A stretch of DNA of 64,000 bases from Escherichia coli. GTDB taxonomy: Bacteria > Pseudomonadota > Gammaproteobacteria > Enterobacterales > Enterobacteriaceae. This document shows positions 1 to 55,305 of this stretch, piece after piece. Both the position numbers and the translations under genes were made by a program. Location: the NCBI RefSeq assembly GCF_016026235.1, contig NZ_CP065613.1; one strand, 5' to 3'. Under the pieces are notes generated by a model. That model was not told the DNA's origin and did not search any database. It saw only the letters and a list, made by a program, of their open reading frames with translations. Numbering within the stretch: the stretch's first letter is position 1; each line of letters opens with the position of its first letter.

Positions 1-1
1 T

Positions 2-172
2 ACCGGTTTAACGGATTATGCTCAGGAGCCGTATTATTCGACGGCGGTGGGATTGCTTCACTATGGGAAAGAGTCACATCTTAACGGTGAAGCTGAAGTA
101 GAAAAACGTGTTACAGCATCAGTTGGCTCGTGGATCAAGCGACTCAATAGTTGGCTGCGAAAAGAGTTTTAA
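2..172 (+). CDS. ftsA: Cell division protein FtsA, 3' end (partial, start outside window)
   Basis: Open frame ending ...WIKRLNSWLRKEF-stop, immediately upstream of ftsZ as in the E. coli dcw cluster. Confidence 0.8.
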   Translation, partial: TGLTDYAQEPYYSTAVGLLHYGKESHLNGEAEVEKRVTASVGSWIKRLNSWLRKEF

Positions 173-232
173 TTTTTATGAGGCCGACAATGATTACGGC
201 CTCAGGCGACAGGCACAAATCGGAGAGAAACT

Positions 233-1384
233 ATGTTTGAACCAATGGAACTTACCAATGACGCGGTGATTAAAGTCATCGGCGTCGGCGGCGGCGGCGG
301 TAATGCTGTTGAACACATGGTGCGCGAGCGCATTGAAGGTGTTGAATTCTTCGCGGTAAATACCGATGCACAAGCGCTGCGTAAAACAGCGGTTGGACAG
401 ACGATTCAAATCGGTAGCGGTATCACCAAAGGACTGGGCGCTGGCGCTAATCCAGAAGTTGGCCGCAATGCGGCTGATGAGGATCGCGATGCACTGCGTG
501 CGGCGCTGGAAGGTGCAGACATGGTCTTTATTGCTGCGGGTATGGGTGGTGGTACCGGTACAGGTGCAGCACCAGTCGTCGCTGAAGTGGCAAAAGATTT
601 GGGTATCCTGACCGTTGCTGTCGTCACTAAGCCCTTCAACTTTGAAGGCAAGAAGCGTATGGCATTCGCGGAGCAGGGGATCACTGAACTGTCCAAGCAT
701 GTGGACTCTCTGATCACTATCCCGAACGACAAACTGCTGAAAGTTCTGGGCCGCGGTATCTCCCTGCTGGATGCGTTTGGCGCAGCGAACGATGTACTGA
801 AAGGCGCTGTGCAAGGTATCGCCGAACTGATTACTCGTCCGGGTTTGATGAACGTGGACTTTGCAGACGTACGCACCGTAATGTCTGAAATGGGCTACGC
901 AATGATGGGGTCTGGCGTGGCAAGCGGTGAAGACCGTGCGGAAGAAGCTGCTGAAATGGCTATCTCTTCTCCGCTGCTGGAAGATATCGACCTGTCTGGC
1001 GCACGCGGCGTGCTGGTTAACATCACAGCGGGCTTCGACCTGCGTCTGGATGAGTTCGAAACGGTAGGTAACACCATCCGTGCATTTGCTTCCGACAACG
1101 CGACCGTGGTTATCGGTACTTCTCTTGACCCGGATATGAATGACGAGCTGCGCGTAACTGTTGTTGCGACAGGTATCGGCATGGACAAACGTCCTGAAAT
1201 CACTCTGGTGACCAATAAGCAGGTTCAGCAGCCAGTGATGGATCGCTACCAGCAGCATGGGATGGCTCCGCTGACCCAGGAGCAGAAGCCGGTTGCTAAA
1301 GTCGTGAATGACAATGCGCCGCAAACTGCGAAAGAGCCGGATTATCTGGATATCCCAGCATTCCTGCGTAAGCAAGCTGATTAA
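233..1384 (+). CDS. ftsZ: Cell division GTPase FtsZ
   Basis: 383 aa ORF with tubulin signature GGGTGTG, N-terminal [26 protein letters not shown]. Confidence 0.97.
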
Positions 1385-1463
1385 GAATTGACTGGAATTT
1401 GGGTTTCGAGGCTCTTTGTGCTAAACTGGCCCGCCGAATGTATAGTACACTTCGGTTGGATAG

Positions 1464-2402
<939 letters not shown>

Positions 2403-2464
2403 CGACATTTATACTGTCGTATAAAATTCGACTGGCAAATCTGGCACTCTCTCCGGCCAGGTGA

Positions 2465-3145
<681 letters not shown>

Positions 3146-3206
3146 CAACAATAAACCTTTACTTCATTTTATTAACTCCGCAACGCGGGGCGTTTGAGAT
3201 TTTATT

Positions 3207-5912
3207 ATGCTAATCAAATTATTAACTAAAGTTTTCGGTAGTCGTAACGATCGCACCCTGCGCCGGATGCGCAAAGTGGTCAACATCATCAATGCCATGG
3301 AACCGGAGATGGAAAAACTCTCCGACGAAGAACTGAAAGGGAAAACCGCAGAGTTTCGTGCACGTCTGGAAAAAGGCGAAGTGCTGGAAAATCTGATCTC
3401 GGAAGCTTTCGCCGTGGTACGTGAGGCAAGTAAGCGCGTCTTTGGTATGCGTCACTTCGACGTTCAGTTACTCGGCGGTATGGTTCTTAACGAACGCTGC
3501 ATCGCCGAAATGCGTACCGGTGAAGGTAAAACCCTGACCGCAACGCTGCCTGCTTATCTGAACGCACTAACCGGTAAAGGCGTGCATGTAGTTACCGTCA
3601 ACGACTACCTGGCGCAACGTGACGCCGAAAACAACCGTCCGCTGTTTGAATTCCTTGGTCTGACTGTCGGTATCAACCTGCCGGGCATGCCAGCACCGGC
3701 AAAGCGCGAAGCTTACGCAGCTGACATCACTTACGGTACGAACAACGAATACGGCTTTGACTACCTGCGCGACAATATGGCGTTCAGCCCTGAAGAACGT
3801 GTACAGCGTAAACTGCACTATGCGCTGGTGGACGAAGTGGACTCCATCCTGATCGATGAAGCGCGTACACCGCTGATCATTTCCGGTCCGGCAGAAGACA
3901 GCTCGGAAATGTATAAACGCGTGAATAAAATTATTCCACACCTGATCCGCCAGGAAAAAGAAGACTCCGAAACCTTCCAGGGCGAAGGCCACTTCTCGGT
4001 GGACGAAAAATCTCGCCAGGTGAACCTGACCGAACGTGGTCTGGTGCTGATTGAAGAACTGCTGGTGAAAGAGGGCATCATGGATGAAGGGGAGTCTCTG
4101 TACTCTCCGGCGAACATCATGCTGATGCACCACGTAACGGCGGCGCTGCGCGCTCATGCGCTGTTTACCCGCGACGTCGACTACATCGTTAAAGATGGTG
4201 AAGTTATCATCGTTGACGAACACACCGGTCGTACCATGCAGGGCCGTCGCTGGTCCGATGGTCTGCACCAGGCTGTGGAAGCGAAAGAAGGTGTGCAGAT
4301 CCAGAACGAAAACCAAACGCTGGCTTCGATCACCTTCCAGAACTACTTCCGTCTGTATGAAAAACTGGCGGGGATGACCGGTACTGCTGATACCGAAGCT
4401 TTCGAATTTAGCTCCATCTACAAACTGGATACCGTCGTTGTTCCGACCAACCGTCCAATGATTCGTAAAGATCTGCCGGACCTGGTCTACATGACTGAAG
4501 CGGAAAAAATTCAGGCGATCATTGAAGATATCAAAGAACGTACTGCGAAAGGCCAGCCGGTGCTGGTGGGTACTATCTCCATCGAAAAATCGGAGCTGGT
4601 GTCAAACGAACTGACCAAAGCCGGTATTAAGCACAATGTCCTGAACGCCAAATTCCACGCCAACGAAGCGGCGATTGTTGCTCAGGCAGGTTATCCGGCT
4701 GCGGTGACTATCGCGACCAACATGGCGGGTCGTGGTACAGATATTGTGCTCGGTGGTAGCTGGCAGGCAGAAGTTGCCGCGCTGGAAAATCCGACCGCAG
4801 AGCAAATCGAAAAAATTAAAGCCGACTGGCAGGTACGTCACGATGCGGTACTGGCAGCAGGTGGCCTGCATATCATCGGTACCGAGCGTCACGAATCCCG
4901 TCGTATCGATAACCAGTTGCGCGGTCGTTCTGGTCGTCAGGGGGATGCTGGTTCTTCCCGTTTCTACCTGTCGATGGAAGATGCGCTGATGCGTATTTTT
5001 GCTTCCGACCGAGTATCCGGCATGATGCGTAAACTGGGTATGAAGCCAGGCGAAGCCATTGAACACCCGTGGGTGACCAAAGCGATTGCTAACGCCCAGC
5101 GTAAAGTTGAAAGCCGTAACTTCGACATTCGTAAGCAACTGCTGGAATATGATGACGTGGCTAACGATCAGCGTCGCGCCATTTACTCCCAGCGTAACGA
5201 ACTGCTGGATGTCAGCGATGTGAGCGAAACCATCAACAGCATTCGTGAAGATGTGTTCAAAGCCACCATTGATGCCTACATTCCGCCACAGTCGCTGGAA
5301 GAAATGTGGGATATTCCGGGGCTGCAGGAACGTCTGAAGAACGATTTCGACCTCGATTTACCAATTGCTGAGTGGCTGGATAAAGAACCCGAACTGCATG
5401 AAGAGACGCTGCGTGAGCGCATTCTGGCGCAGTCCATCGAAGTGTATCAGCGTAAAGAAGAAGTGGTTGGTGCTGAGATGATGCGTCACTTCGAGAAAGG
5501 CGTCATGCTGCAAACGCTTGACTCCCTGTGGAAAGAGCACCTGGCAGCGATGGACTATCTGCGTCAGGGTATCCACCTGCGTGGCTATGCACAGAAAGAT
5601 CCGAAGCAGGAATACAAACGTGAATCGTTCTCCATGTTTGCAGCGATGCTGGAGTCGTTGAAATATGAAGTTATCAGTACGCTGAGCAAAGTTCAGGTAC
5701 GTATGCCTGAAGAGGTTGAGGAGCTGGAACAACAGCGTCGTATGGAAGCCGAGCGTTTAGCGCAAATGCAGCAGCTTAGCCATCAGGATGACGACTCTGC
5801 AGCCGCAGCTGCACTGGCGGCGCAAACCGGTGAACGCAAAGTAGGACGTAACGATCCTTGCCCGTGCGGTTCCGGTAAAAAATACAAGCAGTGCCATGGT
5901 CGCCTGCAATAA
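3207..5912 (+). CDS. secA: Preprotein translocase ATPase SecA
   Basis: 901 aa ORF with Walker motifs and C-terminal zinc-binding [14 protein letters not shown]. Confidence 0.97.
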
Positions 5913-5933
5913 AAGCTAACAGTTGAAGTAAAA

Positions 5934-5957
5934 GGCGCAGGATTCTGCGCCTTTTTT
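5934..5957 (+). terminator. Stem-loop plus T-run downstream of secA
   Basis: ggcgcaggattctgcgcc followed by tttttt. Confidence 0.5.
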
Positions 5958-5971
5958 ATAGGTTTAAGACA

Positions 5972-6361
5972 ATGAAAAAGCTGCAAATTGTGGTAGGTAT
6001 TATTCGCAACGAGAACAATGAAATCTTTATAACGCGTCGCGCAGCAGATGCGCACATGGCGAATAAACTGGAGTTTCCCGGCGGTAAAATTGAAATGGGC
6101 GAAACGCCGAAACAGGCGGTGGTGCGTGAACTTCAGGAAGAAGTCGGGATTACCCCACAACATTTTTCGCTATTTGAAAAACTGGAATATGAATTCCCGG
6201 ACAGGCATATAACTCTGTGGTTCTGGCTGGTCGAAAGCTGGGAAGGGGAGCCGTGGGGTAAAGAAGGGCAACCCGGTGAGTGGATGGCGCTGGTCGGTCT
6301 GAATGCCGATGATTTTCCGCCAGCCAATGAACCGGTAATTGCGAAGCTTAAACGTCTGTAG
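5972..6361 (+). CDS. mutT: 8-oxo-dGTP diphosphatase MutT (Nudix)
   Basis: 129 aa ORF with Nudix box GGKIEMGETPKQAVVRELQEEVG. Confidence 0.95.
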   Translation: MKKLQIVVGIIRNENNEIFITRRAADAHMANKLEFPGGKIEMGETPKQAVVRELQEEVGITPQHFSLFEKLEYEFPDRHITLWFWLVESWEGEPWGKEGQPGEWMALVGLNADDFPPANEPVIAKLKRL

Positions 6362-39948: not shown

Positions 39949-39992
39949 ATGAGGTGTACTGGCAATAGCGGACACTACCATTTGTTCTTTTT

Positions 39993-40811
39993 TTAAGCAG
40001 CCATCTGATGATATTTTTCCCTGAAGGCTGCCGGGGAGATATTCCCCAGACGAGAGTGACGACGCTGACGATTGTAGAAAATCTCAATGTATTCCCGTAT
40101 TACTGAGATGGCCTCATTCCGGCTCTTAAAACGATAGTGGCTCAGGCTCTCATTTTTCAGCGTTCCCCAGAAGCTTTCCATCGGAGCGTTGTCGTAACAG
40201 TTACCTTTACGCGACATTGATGTTTTCAGACCAGACTGCTCCTGTATGACCCGGTAATCGTATGCGCAGTACTGTGAACCTCGATCGGAGTGGTGGATTA
40301 GCCCGGCAGGTGGGCGCTGGCTCCTGAGCGCCATAAACAGGGCTTTACCTGTCAGCTCTTTTGTCATGCGCTCTCCCATGGCGTAGCCGACAATTTCGCA
40401 CGTATAAACATCTTTGATGCCAGCGAGGTACAACCATCCCTCCTGTGTGGCAACATACGTCAGGTCCGCCACCCAGACCTGATTTGGTGCTGTAGGAGCG
40501 AACGTCTGGTTCAGCAGATTTGGCGCAACTGGCAGATTGTGGTTCGAGTTCGTAGTCGCTCTGAACTTGCGTTTCTGCTTACAGCGTAGCCTTAGCTCCT
40601 TACGAAGACGTGCCAGTCGGTCACGACCAACGATGATGCCATTCTCTGCCAGCTCCGTCTGGAGCCGCCGGGTTCCATATGTTTCGCGAGTGCGGATATG
40701 TGCCACCTTAATCTCCAGTTTTAGCCGCTCATCACTTTGTTTTCTGTCTGAGGGTTCATGCTGTACCCAGTTGTAATAACCGCTCCTGGATACACCAAAT
40801 ACCCGACACAT
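39993..40811 (-). CDS. IS3-family transposase OrfB (DDE)
   Basis: 272 aa rve-domain ORF. Confidence 0.85.
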   Translation of the reverse strand: MCRVFGVSRSGYYNWVQHEPSDRKQSDERLKLEIKVAHIRTRETYGTRRLQTELAENGIIVGRDRLARLRKELRLRCKQKRKFRATTNSNHNLPVAPNLLNQTFAPTAPNQVWVADLTYVATQEGWLYLAGIKDVYTCEIVGYAMGERMTKELTGKALFMALRSQRPPAGLIHHSDRGSQYCAYDYRVIQEQSGLKTSMSRKGNCYDNAPMESFWGTLKNESLSHYRFKSRNEAISVIREYIEIFYNRQRRHSRLGNISPAAFREKYHQMAA

Positions 40812-40846
40812 CGCTTCAATGGGAAATTGTTGTCGCCATTGTTCGA

Positions 40847-41149
40847 TTAACGCGTATTTTTCAGCGACTCCTGTGCAAAATACGCTGTTGCTTTTTTTAA
40901 TATATCTCGCTCAAGGCGAGCTTCATTTAACGCCTTACGCAGTTGCAGAATTTCAGATTCCAGTTCAGCCACCGTGCGGGAACCAGGAGTACCGAGCCCT
41001 TTTCTGGCGGCGGTAACCCATTGTCCTAAAGTGCCTTCAGGAAGGGATAATCGGGAAGCGCCTTCACTGATCGAAAGTTGATTTTCAAGAACCGTTCTGA
41101 CAGCTTCGGCTTTGAACTCTTTAGAGTAACGTTGGGTTTTTCTGCTCAT
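40847..41149 (-). CDS. IS3-family transposase OrfA (HTH)
   Basis: 100 aa MSRKTQRYSKEFKAEAVRTVLENQLSISEGASRL... Confidence 0.85.
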   Translation of the reverse strand: MSRKTQRYSKEFKAEAVRTVLENQLSISEGASRLSLPEGTLGQWVTAARKGLGTPGSRTVAELESEILQLRKALNEARLERDILKKATAYFAQESLKNTR

Positions 41150-41210
41150 TATTAGCTCCTTCTGATGCCATTCTATTTCAGGAAGGAGTGTCCGTTAAAC
41201 TCAGGCTACC

Positions 41211-41363
41211 TCAATAAGTGTTTGATCCATTCTTTGGGACTCCTGGCTGATTAAGTATGTCGATAAGGCGTTTCCATCCGTCACGTAATTTACGGGTGAT
41301 TCGTTCAAGTAAAGATTCGGAAGGGCAGCCAGCAACAGGCCACCCTGCAATGGCATATTGCAT
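41211..41363 (-). CDS. cIII: cIII (FtsH inhibitor), last 4 codons replaced by a stop inside the IS inverted repeat
   Basis: MQYAIAGWPVAGCPSESLLERITRKLRDGWKRLIDILNQPGVPKNGSNTY-stop; lambda cIII continues GYPD. Confidence 0.8.
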   Translation of the reverse strand: MQYAIAGWPVAGCPSESLLERITRKLRDGWKRLIDILNQPGVPKNGSNTY

Positions 41364-42342: not shown

Positions 42343-43768
42343 TAATGCCGATCAGTTAAGGATCAGTTGACCGATCCAGTGGCTGTGTAAGAATCCGGAA
42401 ACGCTCACTTGTTTCCGGATTTTTTTATGCACATTGGACAGGCTCTTGATCTGGTATCCCGTTACGATTCTCTGCGTAACCCACTGACTTCTCTGGGGGA
42501 TTACCTCGACCCCGAACTCATCTCTCGTTGCCTTGCCGAATCAGGTACTGTAACGCTACGCAAGCGCCGTCTTCCCCTCGAAATGATGGTCTGGTGTATT
42601 GTTGGCATGGCGCTTGAGCGTAAAGAACCTCTTCACCAGATTGTGAATCGCCTGGACATCATGCTGCCGGGCAATCGCCCCTTCGTTGCCCCCAGTGCCG
42701 TTATTCAGGCCCGCCAGCGCCTGGGAAGTGAGGCTGTCCGCCGCGTGTTCACGAAAACAGCGCAGCTCTGGCATAACGCCACGCCGCATCCGCACTGGTG
42801 CGGCCTGACCCTGCTGGCCATCGATGGTGTGTTCTGGCGCACACCGGATACACCAGAGAACGATGCAGCCTTCCCCCGCCAGACACATGCCGGGAACCCG
42901 GCGCTCTACCCGCAGGTCAAAATGGTCTGCCAGATGGAACTGACCAGCCATCTGCTGACGGCTGCAGCCTTCGGCACGATGAAGAACAGCGAAAATGAGC
43001 TTGCTGAGCAACTTATAGAACAAACCGGCGATAACACTCTGACGTTAATGGATAAAGGTTATTACTCACTGGGACTGTTAAATGCCTGGAGCCTGGCGGG
43101 AGAACACCGCCACTGGATGATACCTCTCAGAAAGGGAGCGCAATATGAAGAGCTCAGAAAACTGGGTAAAGGCGATCATCTGGTGAAGCTGAAAACCAGC
43201 CCGCAGGCACGAAAAAAGTGGCCGGGACTGGGAAATGAAGTGACAGCCCGCCTGCTGACCGTGACGCGCAAAGGAAAAGTCTGCCATCTGCTGACGTCGA
43301 TGACGGACGCCATGCGCTTCCCCGGAGGAGAAATGGCGGATCTGTACAGTCATCGCTGGGAAATCGAACTGGGATACAGGGAGATAAAACAGACGATGCA
43401 ACTGAGCAGGCTGACGCTGAGAAGTAAAAAGCCGGAGCTTGTGGAGCAAGAGCTGTGGGGTGTCTTACTGGCTTATAATCTGGTGAGATATCAGATGATT
43501 AAAATGGCGGAACATCTGAAAGGTTACTGGCCGAATCAACTGAGTTTCTCAGAATCATGCGGAATGGTGATGAGAATGCTGATGACATTGCAGGGCGCTT
43601 CACCGGGACGTATACCGGAGCTGATGCGCGATCTTGCAAGTATGGGACAACTTGTGAAATTACCGACGAGAAGGGGAAGGGCCTTCCCGAGAGTGGTAAA
43701 GGAGAGGCCCTGGAAATACCCCACAGCCCCGAAAAAGAGCCAGTCAGTTGCTTAACTGACTGGCATTA
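42343..43768 (+). mobile_element. IS4 (1426 bp) with 12-bp target duplication gacactaaggtc
   Basis: Terminal inverted repeats taatgccgatcagttaagga.../...ttaactgactggcatta; identical 12-mer at 42331-42342 and 43769-43780. Confidence 0.88.
42409..43755 (+). CDS. IS4 transposase
   Basis: 448 aa DDE transposase ORF filling the element. Confidence 0.88.
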
Positions 43769-48175: not shown

Positions 48176-48599
48176 CGCCATAGACGCCATTCTCTCACTA
48201 CCCATCGACGACAAGTCACCCCACGAAGTCCACGTTAGAGAACCAAAGCGGAGCAATCCTCAAAACCGCCTTATGTGGGCGTTATTGCAGGACGTATCGC
48301 GTCAAGTGCTATGGCATGGTCAACGGCTGGCGCCGGAAGACTGGAAAGACCTGTTCACTGCCCTGTGGCTTAAGACCAAAAAACTGGAGCAACGAAGTGC
48401 GCCTGGTATCGACGGTGGCGTTGTCATGCTTGGTGTGCGTACCAGCAAAATGCGAAAGGCCAGCATGACTGAGCTTATCGAAATCATGTTCTGGTTCGGC
48501 TCAGAGCGCAACGTGCGGTGGAGTGATGACTCCCGGCGAGAGTATGAATGGTCACAACGGAAAGGTAACACGGACAATATGCGAGGGTTGAATGATTAA
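48132..48599 (+). CDS. ninB: NinB-family recombination protein
   Basis: 155 aa; ...NPQNRLMWALLQDVSRQVLWHGQRLAPEDWKDLFTA... parallels lambda NinB (...DQNRKLWACLGDVSRQVEWHGRWLDAESWKCVFTA...). Confidence 0.75.
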   Translation: MKQLFLLRNEAIRNNAIDAILSLPIDDKSPHEVHVREPKRSNPQNRLMWALLQDVSRQVLWHGQRLAPEDWKDLFTALWLKTKKLEQRSAPGIDGGVVMLGVRTSKMRKASMTELIEIMFWFGSERNVRWSDDSRREYEWSQRKGNTDNMRGLND

Positions 48600-49122
48600 G
48601 CATAAATCAGAAACACCAAAAGAAGTTAGAGACTGCTGGCAAACGCCGCTTTGGCTTTTTGATGCACTGGATATTGAGTTTGGATTCTGGCTTGATTCGG
48701 CAGCGAGCGACAAAAACGCTCTGTGCGCTCACTGGCTAACTGAGGCCGACGACGCGCTAAATTCTGAGTGGATAAGCCACGGTGCAATCTGGAATAACCC
48801 ACCGTACAGCAATATCAGGCCGTGGGTGGAAAAAGCCGCTGAGCAGTGCATACAACAGCGACAGACGGTAGTGATGCTTGTGCCAGAGGATATGTCTGTC
48901 GGATGGTTCAGTAAGGCTCTGGAGAGTGTTGACGAAGTTCGCATTATCACTGATGGACGGATTAATTTTATCGAACCATCGACAGGGCTGGAGAAGAAGG
49001 GAAACAGCAAAGGCTCCATGCTGCTGATTTGGCGACCGTTCATCAGTCCTCGACGGATGTTTACTACCGTATCCAAAGCGGCATTGATGGCGATCGGGCA
49101 GGGCGTCAGGAGGGCGGCATGA
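48592..49122 (+). CDS. Phage DNA N6-adenine methyltransferase (Dam-like)
   Basis: 176 aa with NPPY motif (IWNNPPYS). Confidence 0.75.
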
Positions 49123-50258: not shown

Positions 50259-50945
50259 ATGACTGTTCAGATTTCTGTCAAAAACCTTTCCCCTGTTACC
50301 TATAACCAGATTCCGGTAATCACAACTGAGTTGCTTGCCCGCCTTTATGGAACAGAAACAATCCGTATACAGCAGAATCACCATGAAAATAAATCTCGGT
50401 TTATTGAGGGAAAGCACTTCTTTAAAGCTGTTGGTGATGAACTCAGAAATTTGCGACTAGTTTTAAACGAGTCGCAAAATGAGGTGAAAATCTCTCCCAA
50501 AACCCGCTCGCTCATCCTCTGGACAGAACGAGGCGCAGCCCGCCACGCAAAAATGCTCGAAACCGATCAGGCGTGGGAAGTGTTCGAAAAACTGGAAGAC
50601 TGCTATTTCAGCCAGACTTCGAAAAGCGCAGGTCATCACGAGAAGAAAACCAGCGAGCTTTCTGCAAAAGATGCAAACAGTCTGGTATGGTTGTGGGATT
50701 ATGCCAACCGCTCACAGGCATTATTCCGCGAACTGTATCCGGCGCTAAGACAAATTCAGTCTAACTATTCCGGCAGATGCCACGACTACGGTCATGAGTT
50801 CTCGTATGTTATCGGAATGGCGAGAGACGTTTTAATCAATCACACACGAGATGTTGATATTAATGAGCCAGACGGACCAACGAATCTTTCTGCATGGGTA
50901 AGACTTAAGAACAAAGAATTACCTCCTTCACTACATCACTACTGA
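50259..50945 (+). CDS. ORF6N-domain antirepressor-like protein
   Basis: 228 aa; N-terminal ORF6N-like segment ([36 protein letters not shown]). Confidence 0.55.
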
Positions 50946-51013
50946 CAGATTGCCAACGCAACGACCCAGCTTCGGCTGGGTTTTTTATTGCTGAATTTTC
51001 AATATGAGAGGAC

Positions 51014-51274
51014 ATGACAATGAACGAGCTGATAAATAGCAACGCCATTAAAATGACCAGCATTGAAATCGCTGAGTTGGTGGGTAAGCGTCATGACAAT
51101 GTGAAACGTACCATCGAAACGCTGGTTAAAAGTGGAGTTATCCGGCTTCCTCAAATTGAGGTTTCCGAAAGAATCAATAACTTAGGGTTCAATGTTCAGT
51201 ACGAGCATTACGTCTTCGAAGGCGAACAAGGTAAGCGCGACAGCATTATTGTCGTTGAAGGAGGTGTTGCATGA
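51014..51274 (+). CDS. Rha-family phage regulatory protein (short)
   Basis: 86 aa with Rha-like motif TSIEIAELVGKRHDNVKRTIETL. Confidence 0.55.
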   Translation: MTMNELINSNAIKMTSIEIAELVGKRHDNVKRTIETLVKSGVIRLPQIEVSERINNLGFNVQYEHYVFEGEQGKRDSIIVVEGGVA

Positions 51275-52040
51275 ATGCCGTAATTATTGCCAACGCAGAA
51301 ATCGTGCCGATTGAGTTTAATGGCGAGCGTGTTGTTACGTATCAAATGATTGCTGATATTCACGGGGTTCCAGTAGCCACTATTCAAAATGGCTATGCGC
51401 GAAACTCTGAGTATTTCATAGACAGGGAAGATACATATTTTATTGATTTTCATGAAAATACCTTTAGAAGGGGTTTTGAAATTCCTCCTCGTGGCATGCG
51501 AGTTTTCACTGAATCAGGCTATTTGATGCTGGTTAAAACCCTGCGCGACGAGACGGCGTGGAGAGTGCAACGTGAGCTTGTTCGCAATTATTTTCGTGGC
51601 CAAAAGAAGATAAGTCAGCCTTGCCCGACTTCACAAACCCTGCTGAAGCCGCCAGAGCGTGGGCAAACGAATATGAGCAGAAAGTGAAGCTGGAGCAACA
51701 ACTCGCGATTGCCGCACCTAAAGTTGAGTTTGCCGATCGCGTTGGCGAGGCCAGCGGAATTTTGATTGGAAACTTTGCAAAGGTTGTTGGTATTGGCCCA
51801 AACAAACTGTTTGCGTGGATGCGTGATCACAAAATCCTTATTGCTTCAGGTTCCCGGCGCAATGTGCCAATGCAGGAATATATGGATCGCGGCTATTTCA
51901 CAGTGAAAGAAACAGCGGTCAACACAAATCACGGAATACAGATATCGTTCACCACAAAAATCACCGGGCGTGGTCAACAGTGGCTGACCAGAAAGCTGCT
52001 CGATAACGGAATGCTGAAAGTAACAGGGGAGGCTGCATGA
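51271..52040 (+). pseudogene. Antirepressor (N-terminal DNA-binding plus KilA-C domain) split by a frameshift near 51600
   Basis: Overlapping ORFs 51271-51687 and 51621-52040 in different frames; second part ...DFTNPAEAARAWANEYEQKVKLEQQL... is KilA-C-like. Confidence 0.6.
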
Positions 52041-52399: not shown

Positions 52400-52584
52400 A
52401 CGCCACAATTCAAACGATACCAGAGCTTCTTATCCAGACACGAGGCAATCAGACCGAAGTGGCGAGGATGCTTTCCTGCGCAAGAGGAACAGTGCTCAAG
52501 TACAACCGAGACAGCAAAGGCGAGCGTCACGTAATAGTTAACGGCGTCCTGATGGTCAAACAGGGCAAAAGGGGAAGACGATGA
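52396..52584 (+). CDS. ninH: NinH-like protein
   Basis: 62 aa ...RGNQTEVARMLSCARGTVLKY..., located just upstream of Q. Confidence 0.65.
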   Translation: MNATIQTIPELLIQTRGNQTEVARMLSCARGTVLKYNRDSKGERHVIVNGVLMVKQGKRGRR

Positions 52585-53099
52585 GCATAAGAGAACTAAA
52601 CCTCACCAAAGAACAGCACGAGTGGCTGAATGGCTGGCTTGAACTGTGGGGCGCATGGGTTTATTCAGGTCGTCTGGAAAAGCGTATGAGCAGCGTAATA
52701 GCGAAGTTCATGGAGAGCGTAGAGCCGGGAAGAGTTATGACAAGGCCAATGTGCAATGATGATGATGGAATGTTGATTTCTCAGGTCGTCGATTCCGTCA
52801 TGTGCATTGACAAGAAAGCCTTTGGCATCCTCCTCAGCTACTACGCTCATGGTTCATCTAAGCGAGCAATTGCATCCTACTATCACGCGACTGCAAAGCC
52901 ACGCAAGATGTGTGGACGTGGTGGCGAGGGATGGAGAAAACCTTCACTGGCAACCTGTAGAAACGAAATTGACGACATCCTGAAAGCGTCGTTATTTGTT
53001 TTGTACCAGCCAATGCAAAATGCTTTCAAAATGCGTAAACGTGTTGAGAAAGTTAAGCATTTTGCTGTTAAAGACCTTGACATGCAATTATCCATTTAG
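52581..53099 (+). CDS. Q: Late-gene antiterminator Q (non-lambda type)
   Basis: 172 aa ORF in the Q position, directly followed by a pR'-like promoter and terminator. Confidence 0.65.
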   Translation: MSIRELNLTKEQHEWLNGWLELWGAWVYSGRLEKRMSSVIAKFMESVEPGRVMTRPMCNDDDGMLISQVVDSVMCIDKKAFGILLSYYAHGSSKRAIASYYHATAKPRKMCGRGGEGWRKPSLATCRNEIDDILKASLFVLYQPMQNAFKMRKRVEKVKHFAVKDLDMQLSI

Positions 53100-53106
53100 C
53101 CATAAT
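53077..53106 (+). promoter_or_regulatory. Putative late promoter pR' (TTGACA-18 bp-CATAAT)
   Basis: Consensus -35 and near-consensus -10 overlapping the Q stop codon. Confidence 0.55.
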
Positions 53107-53120
53107 TAGAAGGTAAGCTG

Positions 53121-53158
53121 CCGTTAGTGACTCTTAAGTTGCAACGGTGGCTTTTTTT
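53121..53158 (+). terminator. Putative tR' (stem-loop plus T7 run), Q-antiterminated
   Basis: ccgttag...caacggtggc followed by ttttttt. Confidence 0.5.
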
Positions 53159-53162
53159 ATTT

Positions 53163-53237
53163 GGGTCAGTCGTATAAAGGTCATTACGGAAGGCTGTTAA
53201 CCTTCTTATCGTGGTTCGAGTCCACGCTGTCCCGCCA
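53163..53237 (+). tRNA. tRNA-like sequence, anticodon GUU (Asn), imperfect acceptor and D stems; possibly degenerate
   Basis: Anticodon arm gaagg-CTGTTAA-ccttc, T arm cgtgg-TTCGAGT-ccacg, 3' CCA; one mismatch in the acceptor stem, weak D stem. Confidence 0.35.
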
Positions 53238-53242
53238 AATAT

Positions 53243-53318
53243 GCTGGTTTAGCTCCAATGGTAGAGCAGTCGCCTTGTAAGCGAATGGGTAGCGGTTCAA
53301 GTCCGTTAACCAGCACCA
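53243..53318 (+). tRNA. tRNA, anticodon UGU (Thr), 76 nt with encoded CCA
   Basis: 7-bp acceptor stem GCTGGTT/AACCAGC, D arm GCTC-CAATGGTA-GAGC, anticodon loop CTTGTAA, T arm AGCGG-TTCAAGT-CCGTT, discriminator A, CCA. Confidence 0.6.
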
Positions 53319-53434
53319 TAACTGAGCCGTAGCCACTGGCTATCCTGAATTCATCAGTGACAGTTACGCTGCGGCCTTCTTTTTCCCTTCCCAATATAAG
53401 AACTACGCCATCCGTTATTTGCGGAGGTGAGGCT

Positions 53435-53650
53435 ATGAAATCCATGGACAAAATATCAACGGGCATTGCCTACGGCACCTCCGCAGGCAGTGCCGGCTAC
53501 TGGTTTTTACAGTGGCTTGATCAGGTCAGTCCATCACAGTGGGCTGCGATTGGTGTGCTGGGAAGTCTGCTTCTGGGGCTTCTGACTTATCTGACGAATC
53601 TGTATTTCAAAATAAGAGAAGATAAGCGTAAGGCTGCGAGAGGTGAATAA
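53435..53650 (+). CDS. S: Phage 21-type pinholin S (dual-start; antiholin from Met1, holin from Met4)
   Basis: [45 protein letters not shown]... matches S21. Confidence 0.9.
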
Positions 53651-54147
53651 TGTCGCCATCATTACGCAAGGCTGTTGCAGTTGCTATTGGTGGCGGGGCT
53701 GTTGCTATAGCATCTGTGTTAATCACTGGCCCAGGTGGTAACGATGGTCTGGAAGGTGTCAGCTACATACCATACAAAGATATCATTGGTGTATGGACTG
53801 TATGTCACGGACACACCGGAAAAGACATCATGCCTGGTAAAACGTATACCGAAGCAGAATGCAAAGCTCTCCTGAATAAAGACCTTGCCACTGTCGCCAG
53901 ACAAATTAACCCGTACATCAAAGTCGATATACCGGAAACAACGCGCGGCGCTCTTTACTCGTTCGTTTACAACGTGGGCGCTGGCAATTTCAGAACATCG
54001 ACGCTTCTTCGCAAAATAAACCAGGGCGATATCAAAGGCGCATGTGACCAGCTACGTCGCTGGACATATGCTGGCGGTAAGCAATGGAAAGGGCTGATGA
54101 CCCGTCGTGAGATTGAGCGTGAAGTCTGTTTGTGGGGGCAGCAATGA
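53650..54147 (+). CDS. R: SAR endolysin R (phage 21-type lysozyme)
   Basis: 165 aa with N-terminal signal-arrest-release segment ([18 protein letters not shown]) and lysozyme domain. Confidence 0.9.
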
Positions 54148-54581
54148 GCAGAGTCACCGCGATTATCTCCGCTCTGGTTATCTGCATCATCGTCCGCCTG
54201 TCATGGGCTGTTAATCATTACCGTGATAACGCCATTACCTACAAAGAGCAGCGCGATAAGGCCACATCCATCATCTCTGATATGCAGAAGCGTCAACGTG
54301 ATGTAGCAGAACTCGACGCCAGATACACAAAGGAGCTTGCTGATGCTAACGCGACTATCGAAAGTCTCCGTGCTGATGTTTCTGCTGGTCGTAAGCGCCT
54401 GCAAGTCGCCGCCACCTGTGCAAAGTCAACGACCGGAGCCAGCAGCATGGGCTATGGAGAAAGCCCAGGACTTACAGCAGATGCTGAACTCAATTATTAC
54501 CGTCTCCGAAGTGGAATCGACAGGATAACCGCGCAGGTTAACTACCTGCAGGAATACATCAGGACGCAATGCCTGAAATAA
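54144..54581 (+). CDS. Rz: Spanin inner-membrane subunit Rz
   Basis: 145 aa [17 protein letters not shown]..., coiled coil. Confidence 0.85.
54337..54528 (+). CDS. Rz1: Spanin outer-membrane lipoprotein Rz1, nested in the +1 frame of Rz
   Basis: Lipobox LVVSAC followed by a Pro-rich segment; exact start uncertain. Confidence 0.65.
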
Positions 54582-54613
54582 TTTTTTTGCAAATCACAAA
54601 GTCAATTTAATGA

Positions 54614-54636
54614 GCCTCGCACTTGCGGGGCTTTTA
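54614..54636 (+). terminator. Stem-loop plus T-run downstream of Rz
   Basis: gcctcgc-actt-gcggggc followed by tttt. Confidence 0.5.
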
Positions 54637-54783
54637 TATGTCCGCAGTAAACCGCGCATCGCAGCGCGTAACAATCCCGAGTCTTTCAGAAAGCTGAGCC
54701 TGAGAACTGCCGTATATGGTGGCGACCATCTCGGGGCGGCTTTTCTGTGCGAACAGGCTCATCTTTCTAAAAGGTAAGACGCT

Positions 54784-55305
54784 ATGAATATCGTTCCACT
54801 GAATTACAAAGGCGAACCTATCCGCTTCAATACTGATGGCTGGATTAATGCCACTGATATTGCAAAACGTTTCGGGAAGCGTCTGGATCACTGGTTGTCC
54901 AACGCTGAAACTCTCGAATACGTTAGAGCTCTGGATGAGGTTTATTCAGGTGAACCATCGAAAATTCTACATACCCGTGATTCCGGGTATGTAAAAACAA
55001 GCAAGGCACGAAAGGACAGGGGCGGCGGAACATGGCAGCATCCAAAGTTATCAGTTGCCTTTGCAAGATGGTGCGATCCGAAATTCTCCGTATGGTGCGA
55101 CCTGCACATTGATAGTCTGCTTCGCGGTGAACTGACTGAGCAGCAGAAATATGAGCAAGCATGTCGCATTCGCGATGACCGGAAATCAAAAGCCAGCAAT
55201 GGGGCAAGAGAGATGGCTCGCTGGCGATGGGATAAGCCGGTTATTGAAGCAAATGTCGAGTACTGGCGCGAGCAACTGCAGTTGACTCTCGATATCGCGT
55301 GCTGA
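54784..55305 (+). CDS. KilA-N domain protein
   Basis: 173 aa; N-terminal segment with KilA-N-like features. Confidence 0.55.
   Translation: MNIVPLNYKGEPIRFNTDGWINATDIAKRFGKRLDHWLSNAETLEYVRALDEVYSGEPSKILHTRDSGYVKTSKARKDRGGGTWQHPKLSVAFARWCDPKFSVWCDLHIDSLLRGELTEQQKYEQACRIRDDRKSKASNGAREMARWRWDKPVIEANVEYWREQLQLTLDIAC

Follow-up and report, generated by a model that had tools for sequence, protein, structure and literature searches.

In the window, meaning the whole 64,000-nucleotide stretch of Escherichia coli DNA that was analysed (assembly GCF_016026235.1, contig NZ_CP065613.1; positions are counted from its first nucleotide), the four lysis genes S, R, Rz and Rz1 lie on the plus strand at 53435-54581, exactly where a first-pass annotation made from the sequence had placed a lysis cassette. 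Open reading frame analysis, Pfam and PHROGs agree on the location and on the gene features (Table 1), and the Pfam matches of the four products are all so far over the curated cut-offs that chance is excluded. The S and R genes overlap by one nucleotide in the sequence TAATG and the R and Rz genes overlap in the sequence ATGA, both of these overlaps being also found in phage 21. All four reading frames are open, with neither a stop codon nor a frameshift, and comparison of the cassette genes with reference alleles gave pN/pS values of 0.05-0.19 with mostly synonymous divergence, which points to strong purifying selection on these genes in the past.

The list of open reading frames gave starts further upstream for three of the genes, namely GTG 53357 for S, GTG 54132 for Rz and TTG 54337 for Rz1, and the true starts were placed downstream of these, in line with the phage 21 annotation of the homologous genes. 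Short minus-strand reading frames within the cassette were judged spurious solely for lying under well-supported genes or tRNAs. In NCBIfam, S, Rz, Rz1 and the upstream antiterminator Q matched no named family, and R had only distant matches below the cut-off.

Table 1. Lysis genes, neighbouring signals and other elements located in the window
Feature	Position	Strand	Identification and basis
Q, late antiterminator, Q21 family	52581-53099	+	Pfam Phage_antitermQ, E=1.3e-25; PHROG 943, E=1.1e-92
pR' late promoter, TTGACA-18-CATAAT	53077-53106	+	promoter scan, 11/12 matches; aligned with annotated phage 21 pR'
tR' intrinsic terminator, long hairpin and U7	53115-53158	+	identical to annotated phage 21 terminator
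tRNA-Asn (GTT), late transcript leader	53163-53237	+	ARAGORN; Rfam tRNA, 55.3 bits
tRNA-Thr (TGT), late transcript leader	53243-53318	+	ARAGORN; Rfam tRNA, 61.5 bits
S, class II holin, phage 21 pinholin type	53435-53650	+	71 aa; Pfam PF04971, phage 21 alignment
R, SAR endolysin, R21 type, GH24 lysozyme	53650-54147	+	165 aa; Pfam PF00959, PDB matches
Rz, i-spanin (inner-membrane subunit)	54144-54581	+	145 aa; Pfam PF03245, alignment of 16 Rz sequences
Rz1, o-spanin (outer-membrane lipoprotein), HK97 o-spanin family	54343-54528	+	61 aa; Pfam PF06085, PHROG 3198
GC-rich terminator-like hairpin just 3' of Rz	54612-54633	+	terminator scan; fold -15.4 kcal/mol, z = -3.16
KilA-N gene after Rz, as in HK97	54784-55305		
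IS600-like IS3-family element, 1264 bp, exactly between kil and cIII	39950-41213		best E. coli matches annotate IS600
IS4 transposase gene, between the pL/oL region and cI	42409-43755		

The S product matches the Pfam family Phage_holin_2_1 (PF04971, 'Bacteriophage P21 holin S') with E=1.1e-35 and 121.8 bits for a cut-off of 26. In global alignment it has 68/71 residues (95.8%) in common with phage 21 S, residues 1-45 being identical and the three changes being V46L, F49L and R64K, with a pN/pS of 0.05 against phage 21, and it is 87.3% identical to DLP12 EssD. The dual-start motif MKSMDK that had been noticed in S is present, with ATG codons at 53435 (Met1) and 53444 (Met4) that are the same as the annotated S71 and S68 starts of phage 21, and a Shine-Dalgarno sequence GGAGG lies ahead of them at 53423-53427. 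The Met1 product would thus be the 71-residue antiholin form carrying the extra Lys2 and the Met4 product the 68-residue pinholin form. A regulatory stem-loop, of the kind that governs the proportion of the two starts, was also looked for at the S translation-initiation region, where folding was no better than that of shuffled sequences (z = -1.5, and z = -0.8 for phage 21). S has two predicted transmembrane segments, the first weakly hydrophobic; only the second one (residues ~36-57) holds 19-residue hydropathy windows above 1.0, the first segment, rich in Gly, Ala, Ser and Thr, staying below that value. The S21-68 pinholin of phage 21 forms heptameric channels of ~2 nm which depolarise the membrane and bar the passage of a soluble endolysin (PMC9636201).

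The R product matches Phage_lysozyme (PF00959) with E=9.5e-46 and, over residues 1-165, the solved structures 4ZPU (RrrD, E=5.6e-108) and 3HDE (R21, E=4e-107); it also matches the solved R21 structure 3HDF end to end. Its identity in global protein alignment is 94.5% to phage 21 R and 95.8% to DLP12 RrrD. SAR lysozymes are described as having an E-x8-D-x5-T motif and an N-terminal segment of ~20 weakly hydrophobic residues rich in Gly, Ala, Ser and Thr (PMC9239132). R carries this catalytic triad with the correct spacing (E35, D44 and T50), and the N-terminal SAR segment claimed in the first-pass annotation was recovered at residues 6-26, which comprise 6 Ala, 3 Gly, 1 Ser and 1 Thr. By its triad and its Gly/Ala-rich N-terminal segment, R fits the description of a SAR lysozyme, for which the definitive test is release by a pinholin (PMC9239132).

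Resemblance of S and R to their lambda counterparts had been named beforehand as the observation that would overturn a phage 21 assignment. A lambda-type cassette, made of a canonical holin and a soluble transglycosylase, is refuted by several lines of evidence: global alignment with the lambda proteins gives an identity of only 18.9% for S and 19.8% for R, their Pfam families are those of the P21 holin and of the GH24 lysozymes, and at the DNA level the lambda lysis region is matched only at 54144-54392, within Rz, with no similarity in S or R. Nothing speaks for such a cassette but the N-terminal part that Rz has in common with lambda, and phage 21 and HK97 have this part too. Consequently, the phage 21 type of S and R stands.

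The spanin genes gave a different result. Rz belongs to PF03245 (Phage_lysis, E=1.3e-34) and Rz1 to PF06085 (E=2.2e-20) and PHROG 3198 (E=4.1e-29), and the Rz1 gene is wholly nested within Rz in the +1 frame as had been reported, the gene starts being 0 (Rz) and 1 (Rz1) modulo 3. In global protein alignment Rz is 95.2% identical to that of HK97 versus 57.1% for lambda, 55.8% for phage 21 and 55.2% for DLP12, and a tblastn search with Rz retrieved mEp506, HK022, HK97, Sf6 and epsilon34 at 94.5-96.6% identity. In the same way Rz1 is 96.7% identical (59/61 residues) to the +1-frame product of HK97 versus 38.1% for lambda and 36.5% for both phage 21 and DLP12. The description of these spanins as phage 21-type therefore has to be abandoned, and of the broader claim of a phage 21-type cassette only the part concerning S and R is retained.

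In the classification of Kongari et al. 2018 (PMC6139136), the Rz proteins of lambda, phage 21, HK97 and P22 are in one 'Lambda' i-spanin family, while the embedded Rz1 proteins are split, phage 21 being in the 'Lambda' o-spanin family and HK97, HK022, P22, Sf6, 2851 and others in the 'HK97' o-spanin family. The criterion applied here for family membership was an identity of 40% or more covering 40% or more of the length, using whole-protein figures where PMC6139136 used periplasmic domains only. On these approximate whole-protein values, Rz belongs with the Lambda i-spanin family (55.8-57.1% to phage 21 and lambda, and still higher to HK97). Rz1 falls below the threshold for the Lambda o-spanin family, by whole-protein figures that are near it, and is well within the HK97 o-spanin family. 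Rz1 is found in public records as 'Lysis protein Rz1' or 'Rz1 family lipoprotein', and it has a signal peptide and a lipobox VSA|C20 followed by Lys, with no Asp at position +2. The N-terminal membrane anchor of Rz is hydrophobic over residues 4-23. This anchor holds one of two substitutions of Rz, C18R, at a position occupied by C, F, Y or S in the 15 relatives compared, the other one being D104Y, at a position where Asp is found in 12/12 of the HK97-type relatives compared and Asn in lambda, phage 21 and DLP12. A weakening of the spanin step by C18R and D104Y is possible but not likely.

The change of relationship along the cassette was located by comparing DNA profiles. In a binned profile, identity to phage 21 is ~83-100% from 53133 to ~54259 and then falls to roughly 50%, whereas homology to HK97 DNA runs at 95.2% identity over 54144-54659 and reaches 78 nt past the Rz stop codon. 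Rz codons 1-39 are shared among lambda, phage 21 and HK97, and from ~54260 on the sequence is that of the HK97/HK022/Sf6 allele. Because the identity to phage 21 collapses past ~54260 while the HK97 homology runs on from the start of Rz, a recombination joint is placed within Rz near 54260, after codon ~39; the crossover would thus coincide with the end of the membrane-anchor coding sequence that the alleles of lambda, phage 21 and HK97 have in common. As the spanins are of HK97 type and S and R of phage 21 type, the cassette itself is therefore mosaic, and the view of the prophage as a mosaic of modules, already put forward in the first-pass annotation, extends even inside the lysis genes.

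These profiles also bear on the possibility that the whole phage 21 cassette, spanins included, was transferred as a single module to an early region of lambda type. Such a transfer would account for the phage 21-like S, R, tRNA pair and tR', as well as for the first 39 codons of Rz, which are nearly identical to those of phage 21 Rz. It is highly improbable given the loss of phage 21 identity past ~54260, and it is refuted for the spanins by their far greater identity to HK97 than to phage 21; besides, the o-spanins of phage 21 and HK97 have been placed in separate published families (PMC6139136). The sequence downstream of Rz also argues against it, since the bor gene located after Rz in phage 21 and lambda is missing here and a KilA-N gene is found after Rz as in HK97. 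The terminator-like hairpin just 3' of Rz lies inside the HK97-homologous stretch. Farther 3', a search for head and packaging genes of phage 21 type gave just a weak match of 69% far downstream.

Upstream of S, the sequence from 53114 to ~53372 is ~100% identical to phage 21 DNA (1-2 mismatches per 60 nt) and the match degrades to the left of 53114. This segment holds tR', whose fold of -20.8 kcal/mol (z = -4.66) was equalled in stability by 0/200 shuffled sequences and which would be the target of Q antitermination, and the tRNA-Asn and tRNA-Thr genes, which lie at the same place in phage 21, the tRNA-Asn gene being 100% identical to the phage 21 copy in the alignment. Q itself shows 79.1% identity to its phage 21 counterpart and 14.7% to that of lambda; its first ~100 residues are nearly identical to those of Q21, and its C-terminal part is different and 10 residues longer. 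The Q reading frame reads through the -35 hexamer of pR'. This -35 hexamer is common to phage 21, and the stretch between the hexamers differs, at the place where phage 21 carries the Q-binding element (QBE). The pairing of this Q with this pR' is thus an assumption.

The prophage around the cassette was then compared with lambda, phage 21 and E. coli chromosomes. Positions 1-6000 of the window (ftsA-secA) are 100% identical to E. coli strain FDAARGOS_943, in which yacH is uninterrupted; the window matches that strain up to 32807 within yacH and then continues with lambda P'-arm sequence, which indicates that the prophage sits in yacH, with its right end outside the window. Identity to lambda is 98-100% for int, 98.6% for xis, 91% for N, 87% for cII, 95.5% for O and 97% for P, and a match to cIII and one to a fragment of kil are each 100% identical to lambda over the matched stretch. 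The cI product is only 71% identical to that of lambda, with 93.6% DNA identity in the part coding for the C-terminus, and the immunity of the prophage is therefore probably different. None of exo, bet, gam and rexAB was matched in this comparison with lambda.

The early region had been called lambda-like on account of int, N, O and P. This holds for int/xis and N, but O and P match phage 21 equally: O, P and ren show ~95-96% DNA identity to lambda and phage 21 alike, phage 21 itself carrying lambda-like O and P, so that O/P was rejected as a marker separating this early region from phage 21. The parts of lambda rather than phage 21 type are confined to int/xis, N, the pL/nutL region, cII and the C-terminal part of cI. 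Moreover, int is split into two reading frames by a deletion of one nucleotide (GGGTCTG in lambda, GGGCTG here). With this frameshift and with the IS600-like and IS4 insertions, the prophage looks crippled and immobilised, and its induction and late transcription may never happen.

The cassette could be a decaying remnant in a dead prophage, comparable to the essD-rrrD-rzpD/rzoD relic of DLP12 in E. coli K-12, its reading frames still open and either its spanin (by C18R and D104Y in Rz) or its route of expression broken. The int deletion, the two insertion elements in the early region and the absence of exo, bet, gam and rexAB are all in keeping with decay, as is the rarity of the 24-kb stretch 30000-54000, which includes the chromosome-prophage junction and the early region and of which at most 47% is shared by any of the 5,426 complete E. 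coli genomes of the collection. The private substitutions of Rz, one of them a charged residue in the anchor, point in the same direction, together with the very low frequency of the exact Rz protein, recorded in 2 contigs, one of these being a draft contig of 2.2 kb with 99.6% identity to the window over the cassette. Decay is however considered unlikely, as S, R, Rz and Rz1 are free of stop codons and frameshifts and the exact alleles of S, R and Rz1 are widespread, being recorded in 743, 449 and 219 contigs respectively. Furthermore, Rz position 18 is naturally variable and near the periplasmic end of the anchor, so that Arg may be tolerated there, the anchor keeps a high hydropathy (2.26 in the best 19-residue window compared with 2.63 with Cys18), and the downstream head and terminase genes look intact within the window.

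In the case of DLP12, it has been suggested that the host makes use of the lysis genes. Here too, the lysis genes could have been kept open in a prophage no longer able to excise or to undergo normal induction, as the host uses them or the unit formed by pR', tRNA-Asn and tRNA-Thr, with C18R and D104Y disabling the spanin and S and R acting without full lysis; this is considered quite unlikely. The reading preferred with high confidence is that 53435-54581 is an intact lambdoid late-lysis unit following the pathway of pinholin, SAR endolysin and two-component spanin and built from two known allele sets.

For such an intact unit, a lysis pathway can be proposed from the published pinholin pathway (PMC9636201), the release and activation of SAR endolysins (PMC9239132) and the disruption of the outer membrane by Rz-Rz1 (PMC6139136). 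Q would let RNA polymerase starting at pR' pass tR', and a single transcript would then carry tRNA-Asn, tRNA-Thr, S, R and Rz/Rz1. The S71 antiholin, made from Met1, and the S68 pinholin, made from Met4, would accumulate in the inner membrane until, at a fixed moment, the first, weakly hydrophobic helix of S exits the bilayer and the second helix forms heptameric channels of ~2 nm, whereby the membrane potential would collapse. Meanwhile, R would be exported by Sec, and its Gly/Ala-rich N-terminal segment would keep it inactive at the membrane; it would be freed on depolarisation, allowing it to refold around E35, D44 and T50 and to cut the murein. Once the wall is gone, Rz in the inner membrane and Rz1, the outer-membrane lipoprotein, would together assemble into a complex that spans the periplasm and disrupt the outer membrane. 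We infer each of these functional steps from the close homology to proteins that have been studied by experiment, and the damaged prophage may never express the cassette.

Among characterised systems, the phage 21 cassette (OL657228.1, 39866-41036) has the same gene order, start/stop overlaps and MKSMDK dual start, and the same upstream order of Q, pR', tR', tRNA-Asn, tRNA-Thr and S, with tR' and both tRNAs ~100% identical. It differs in the allele of Rz from ~54260 on and of the whole of Rz1, in having bor, in Q with its different C-terminal part, in the sequence at the position of the QBE and in its head genes, which are unrelated. The spanins of the HK97/HK022/Sf6/epsilon34/P22 group are the closest to those found here, and the KilA-N gene is next in both HK97 and the window. 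In HK97, however, they are paired according to its annotation with a holin like that of lambda and an endolysin of transglycosylase type instead of S and R of phage 21 type, and C18R and D104Y set the present Rz apart from those of the group. The DLP12 essD-rrrD-rzpD/rzoD cassette of E. coli K-12 resembles the present one by RrrD and EssD and by its location in a defective lambdoid prophage, but it keeps spanins of lambda/21 type as well as bor, its Rz being 55.2% identical to the present one.

Verbatim copies of S, R, Rz, Rz1 and Q are found in public databases under the expected names. Sequence related to the cassette is present in 5,070 of the 5,426 complete E. coli genomes, none of which contains the cassette with its flanks at more than 80% coverage and more than 91% identity. 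The cassette is already known, with no novelty, as the S21/R21 and HK97-spanin hybrid is found in described phages, and it touches no open question. Its main value is thus in correct annotation as pinholin (S21-type), SAR endolysin (R21/RrrD-type), i-spanin and o-spanin (HK97 family), the label 'phage 21 cassette' being wrong for the entire unit. The joint within Rz also provides a clean case of lambdoid mosaicism at sub-gene resolution, a pattern already documented for the Rz family.

The described phages in which a holin and endolysin of phage 21 type are combined with Rz/Rz1 of HK97 type include the Escherichia phages IdasGreatGrand, PhiR49_1 and ev099 and the Stx2-converting phages 1717 and 2851. 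Their DNA is 92-94.5% identical over 86-95% of a 1244-nt query, IdasGreatGrand reaching 94.3% over 95%. Within the cassette they differ from the present one by allelic differences only, and their flanking modules are different, with for instance stx genes upstream in the Stx phages.

The prophage left end was located within yacH, and an empty site is present in strain FDAARGOS_943, whose uninterrupted yacH was used for comparison of the junction. The lambda P' arm was found at this junction and the int/xis genes are 98-100% identical to those of lambda, which identifies the prophage in yacH as a lambda-Int prophage that does not occupy the gal-bio site. The core at the yacH junction reads CTTATCAGTAAG compared to TTTATACTAAG in lambda, and attR falls beyond the window. 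The int gene itself is broken into two overlapping ORFs of 131 aa and 230 aa because of a single-base deletion within a G run (AGGGGCTG here and AGGGGTCTG in lambda); either int is a pseudogene here or the deletion is an error of the assembly.

Features of the prophage discussed in this part, in window coordinates
Feature	Position	Strand	Details
Prophage left end	32760-32900		junction ~32807; inside yacH, lpdA upstream
Lambda-type int	32877-33946	minus	break near 33617-33626
IS3-family element, 1264 bp	39950-41213		orfA 40847-41149; orfB 39993-40811
IS4-family transposase gene	42409-43755		Nterm_IS4 and DDE_Tnp_1 domains
cI-like repressor, 244 aa	43816-44550	minus	HTH_3 and Peptidase_S24
Dam-family N6-adenine methyltransferase gene and two ORF6N / P22 antirepressor-C-domain genes	48592-49122 and 50259-51687		nin region
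Q divergence and pR' region	52860-53114		
Rz codons 18 and 104	54195-54197 and 54453-54455		C18R, D104Y
Short non-coding stretch	55479-55617		95% identical to phage 21

In the early region, the insertion point of the IS3-family element, copies of which are annotated as IS600 in close E. coli matches, falls exactly between the kil and cIII sequences of lambda, and the two flanks share 3 bp when placed on the lambda coordinates, as would be expected of a target duplication. The IS4-family transposase gene takes the place that rexA and rexB have in lambda, with the pL/oL-N region on one side and cI on the other; no rex genes were found. Likeness of the cI-like repressor to lambda is confined to the C-terminal coding part (93.6% DNA identity), with 71% identity for the whole protein, and its immunity specificity is probably neither that of lambda nor that of phage 21. 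The Dam-family methyltransferase and ORF6N / P22 antirepressor-C-domain genes have no counterpart in the lambda and phage 21 nin regions examined.

The late antiterminator Q is identical to Q21 over its first ~100 residues and diverges thereafter, a divergence accompanied by changed DNA between the hexamers of the late promoter pR', the -35 of which is read through by the Q ORF. The Q-binding element (QBE) of phage 21 sits between the -35 and -10, where the DNA differs here. The two changes together may mark a distinct Q/QBE specificity pair inside the Q21 family. The exact Q was recovered on 8 public contigs, and its 90%-identity cluster holds 2,112 members.

Downstream, the S protein (53435-53650) is 95.8% identical to that of phage 21 but its DNA only 86.1% (pS 0.53), whereas the adjoining block of tRNA genes and terminator matches phage 21 at ~100%. 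Divergence depth thus differs greatly between these neighbours, suggesting a further recombination boundary near 53373-53430.

Two private substitutions were noted in the spanin Rz. C18R falls in the membrane anchor, at a position occupied by C, F, Y or S in relatives, while position 104, Y here, is D in the 12 HK97-type relatives compared and N in the lambda, phage 21 and DLP12 proteins. The exact Rz protein occurs on only 2 public contigs and the embedded Rz1 allele on 219.

The short non-coding stretch close to phage 21 is ~85% identical to lambda and DLP12; its counterpart lies directly downstream of bor in all three, and it has been retained here despite the missing bor.
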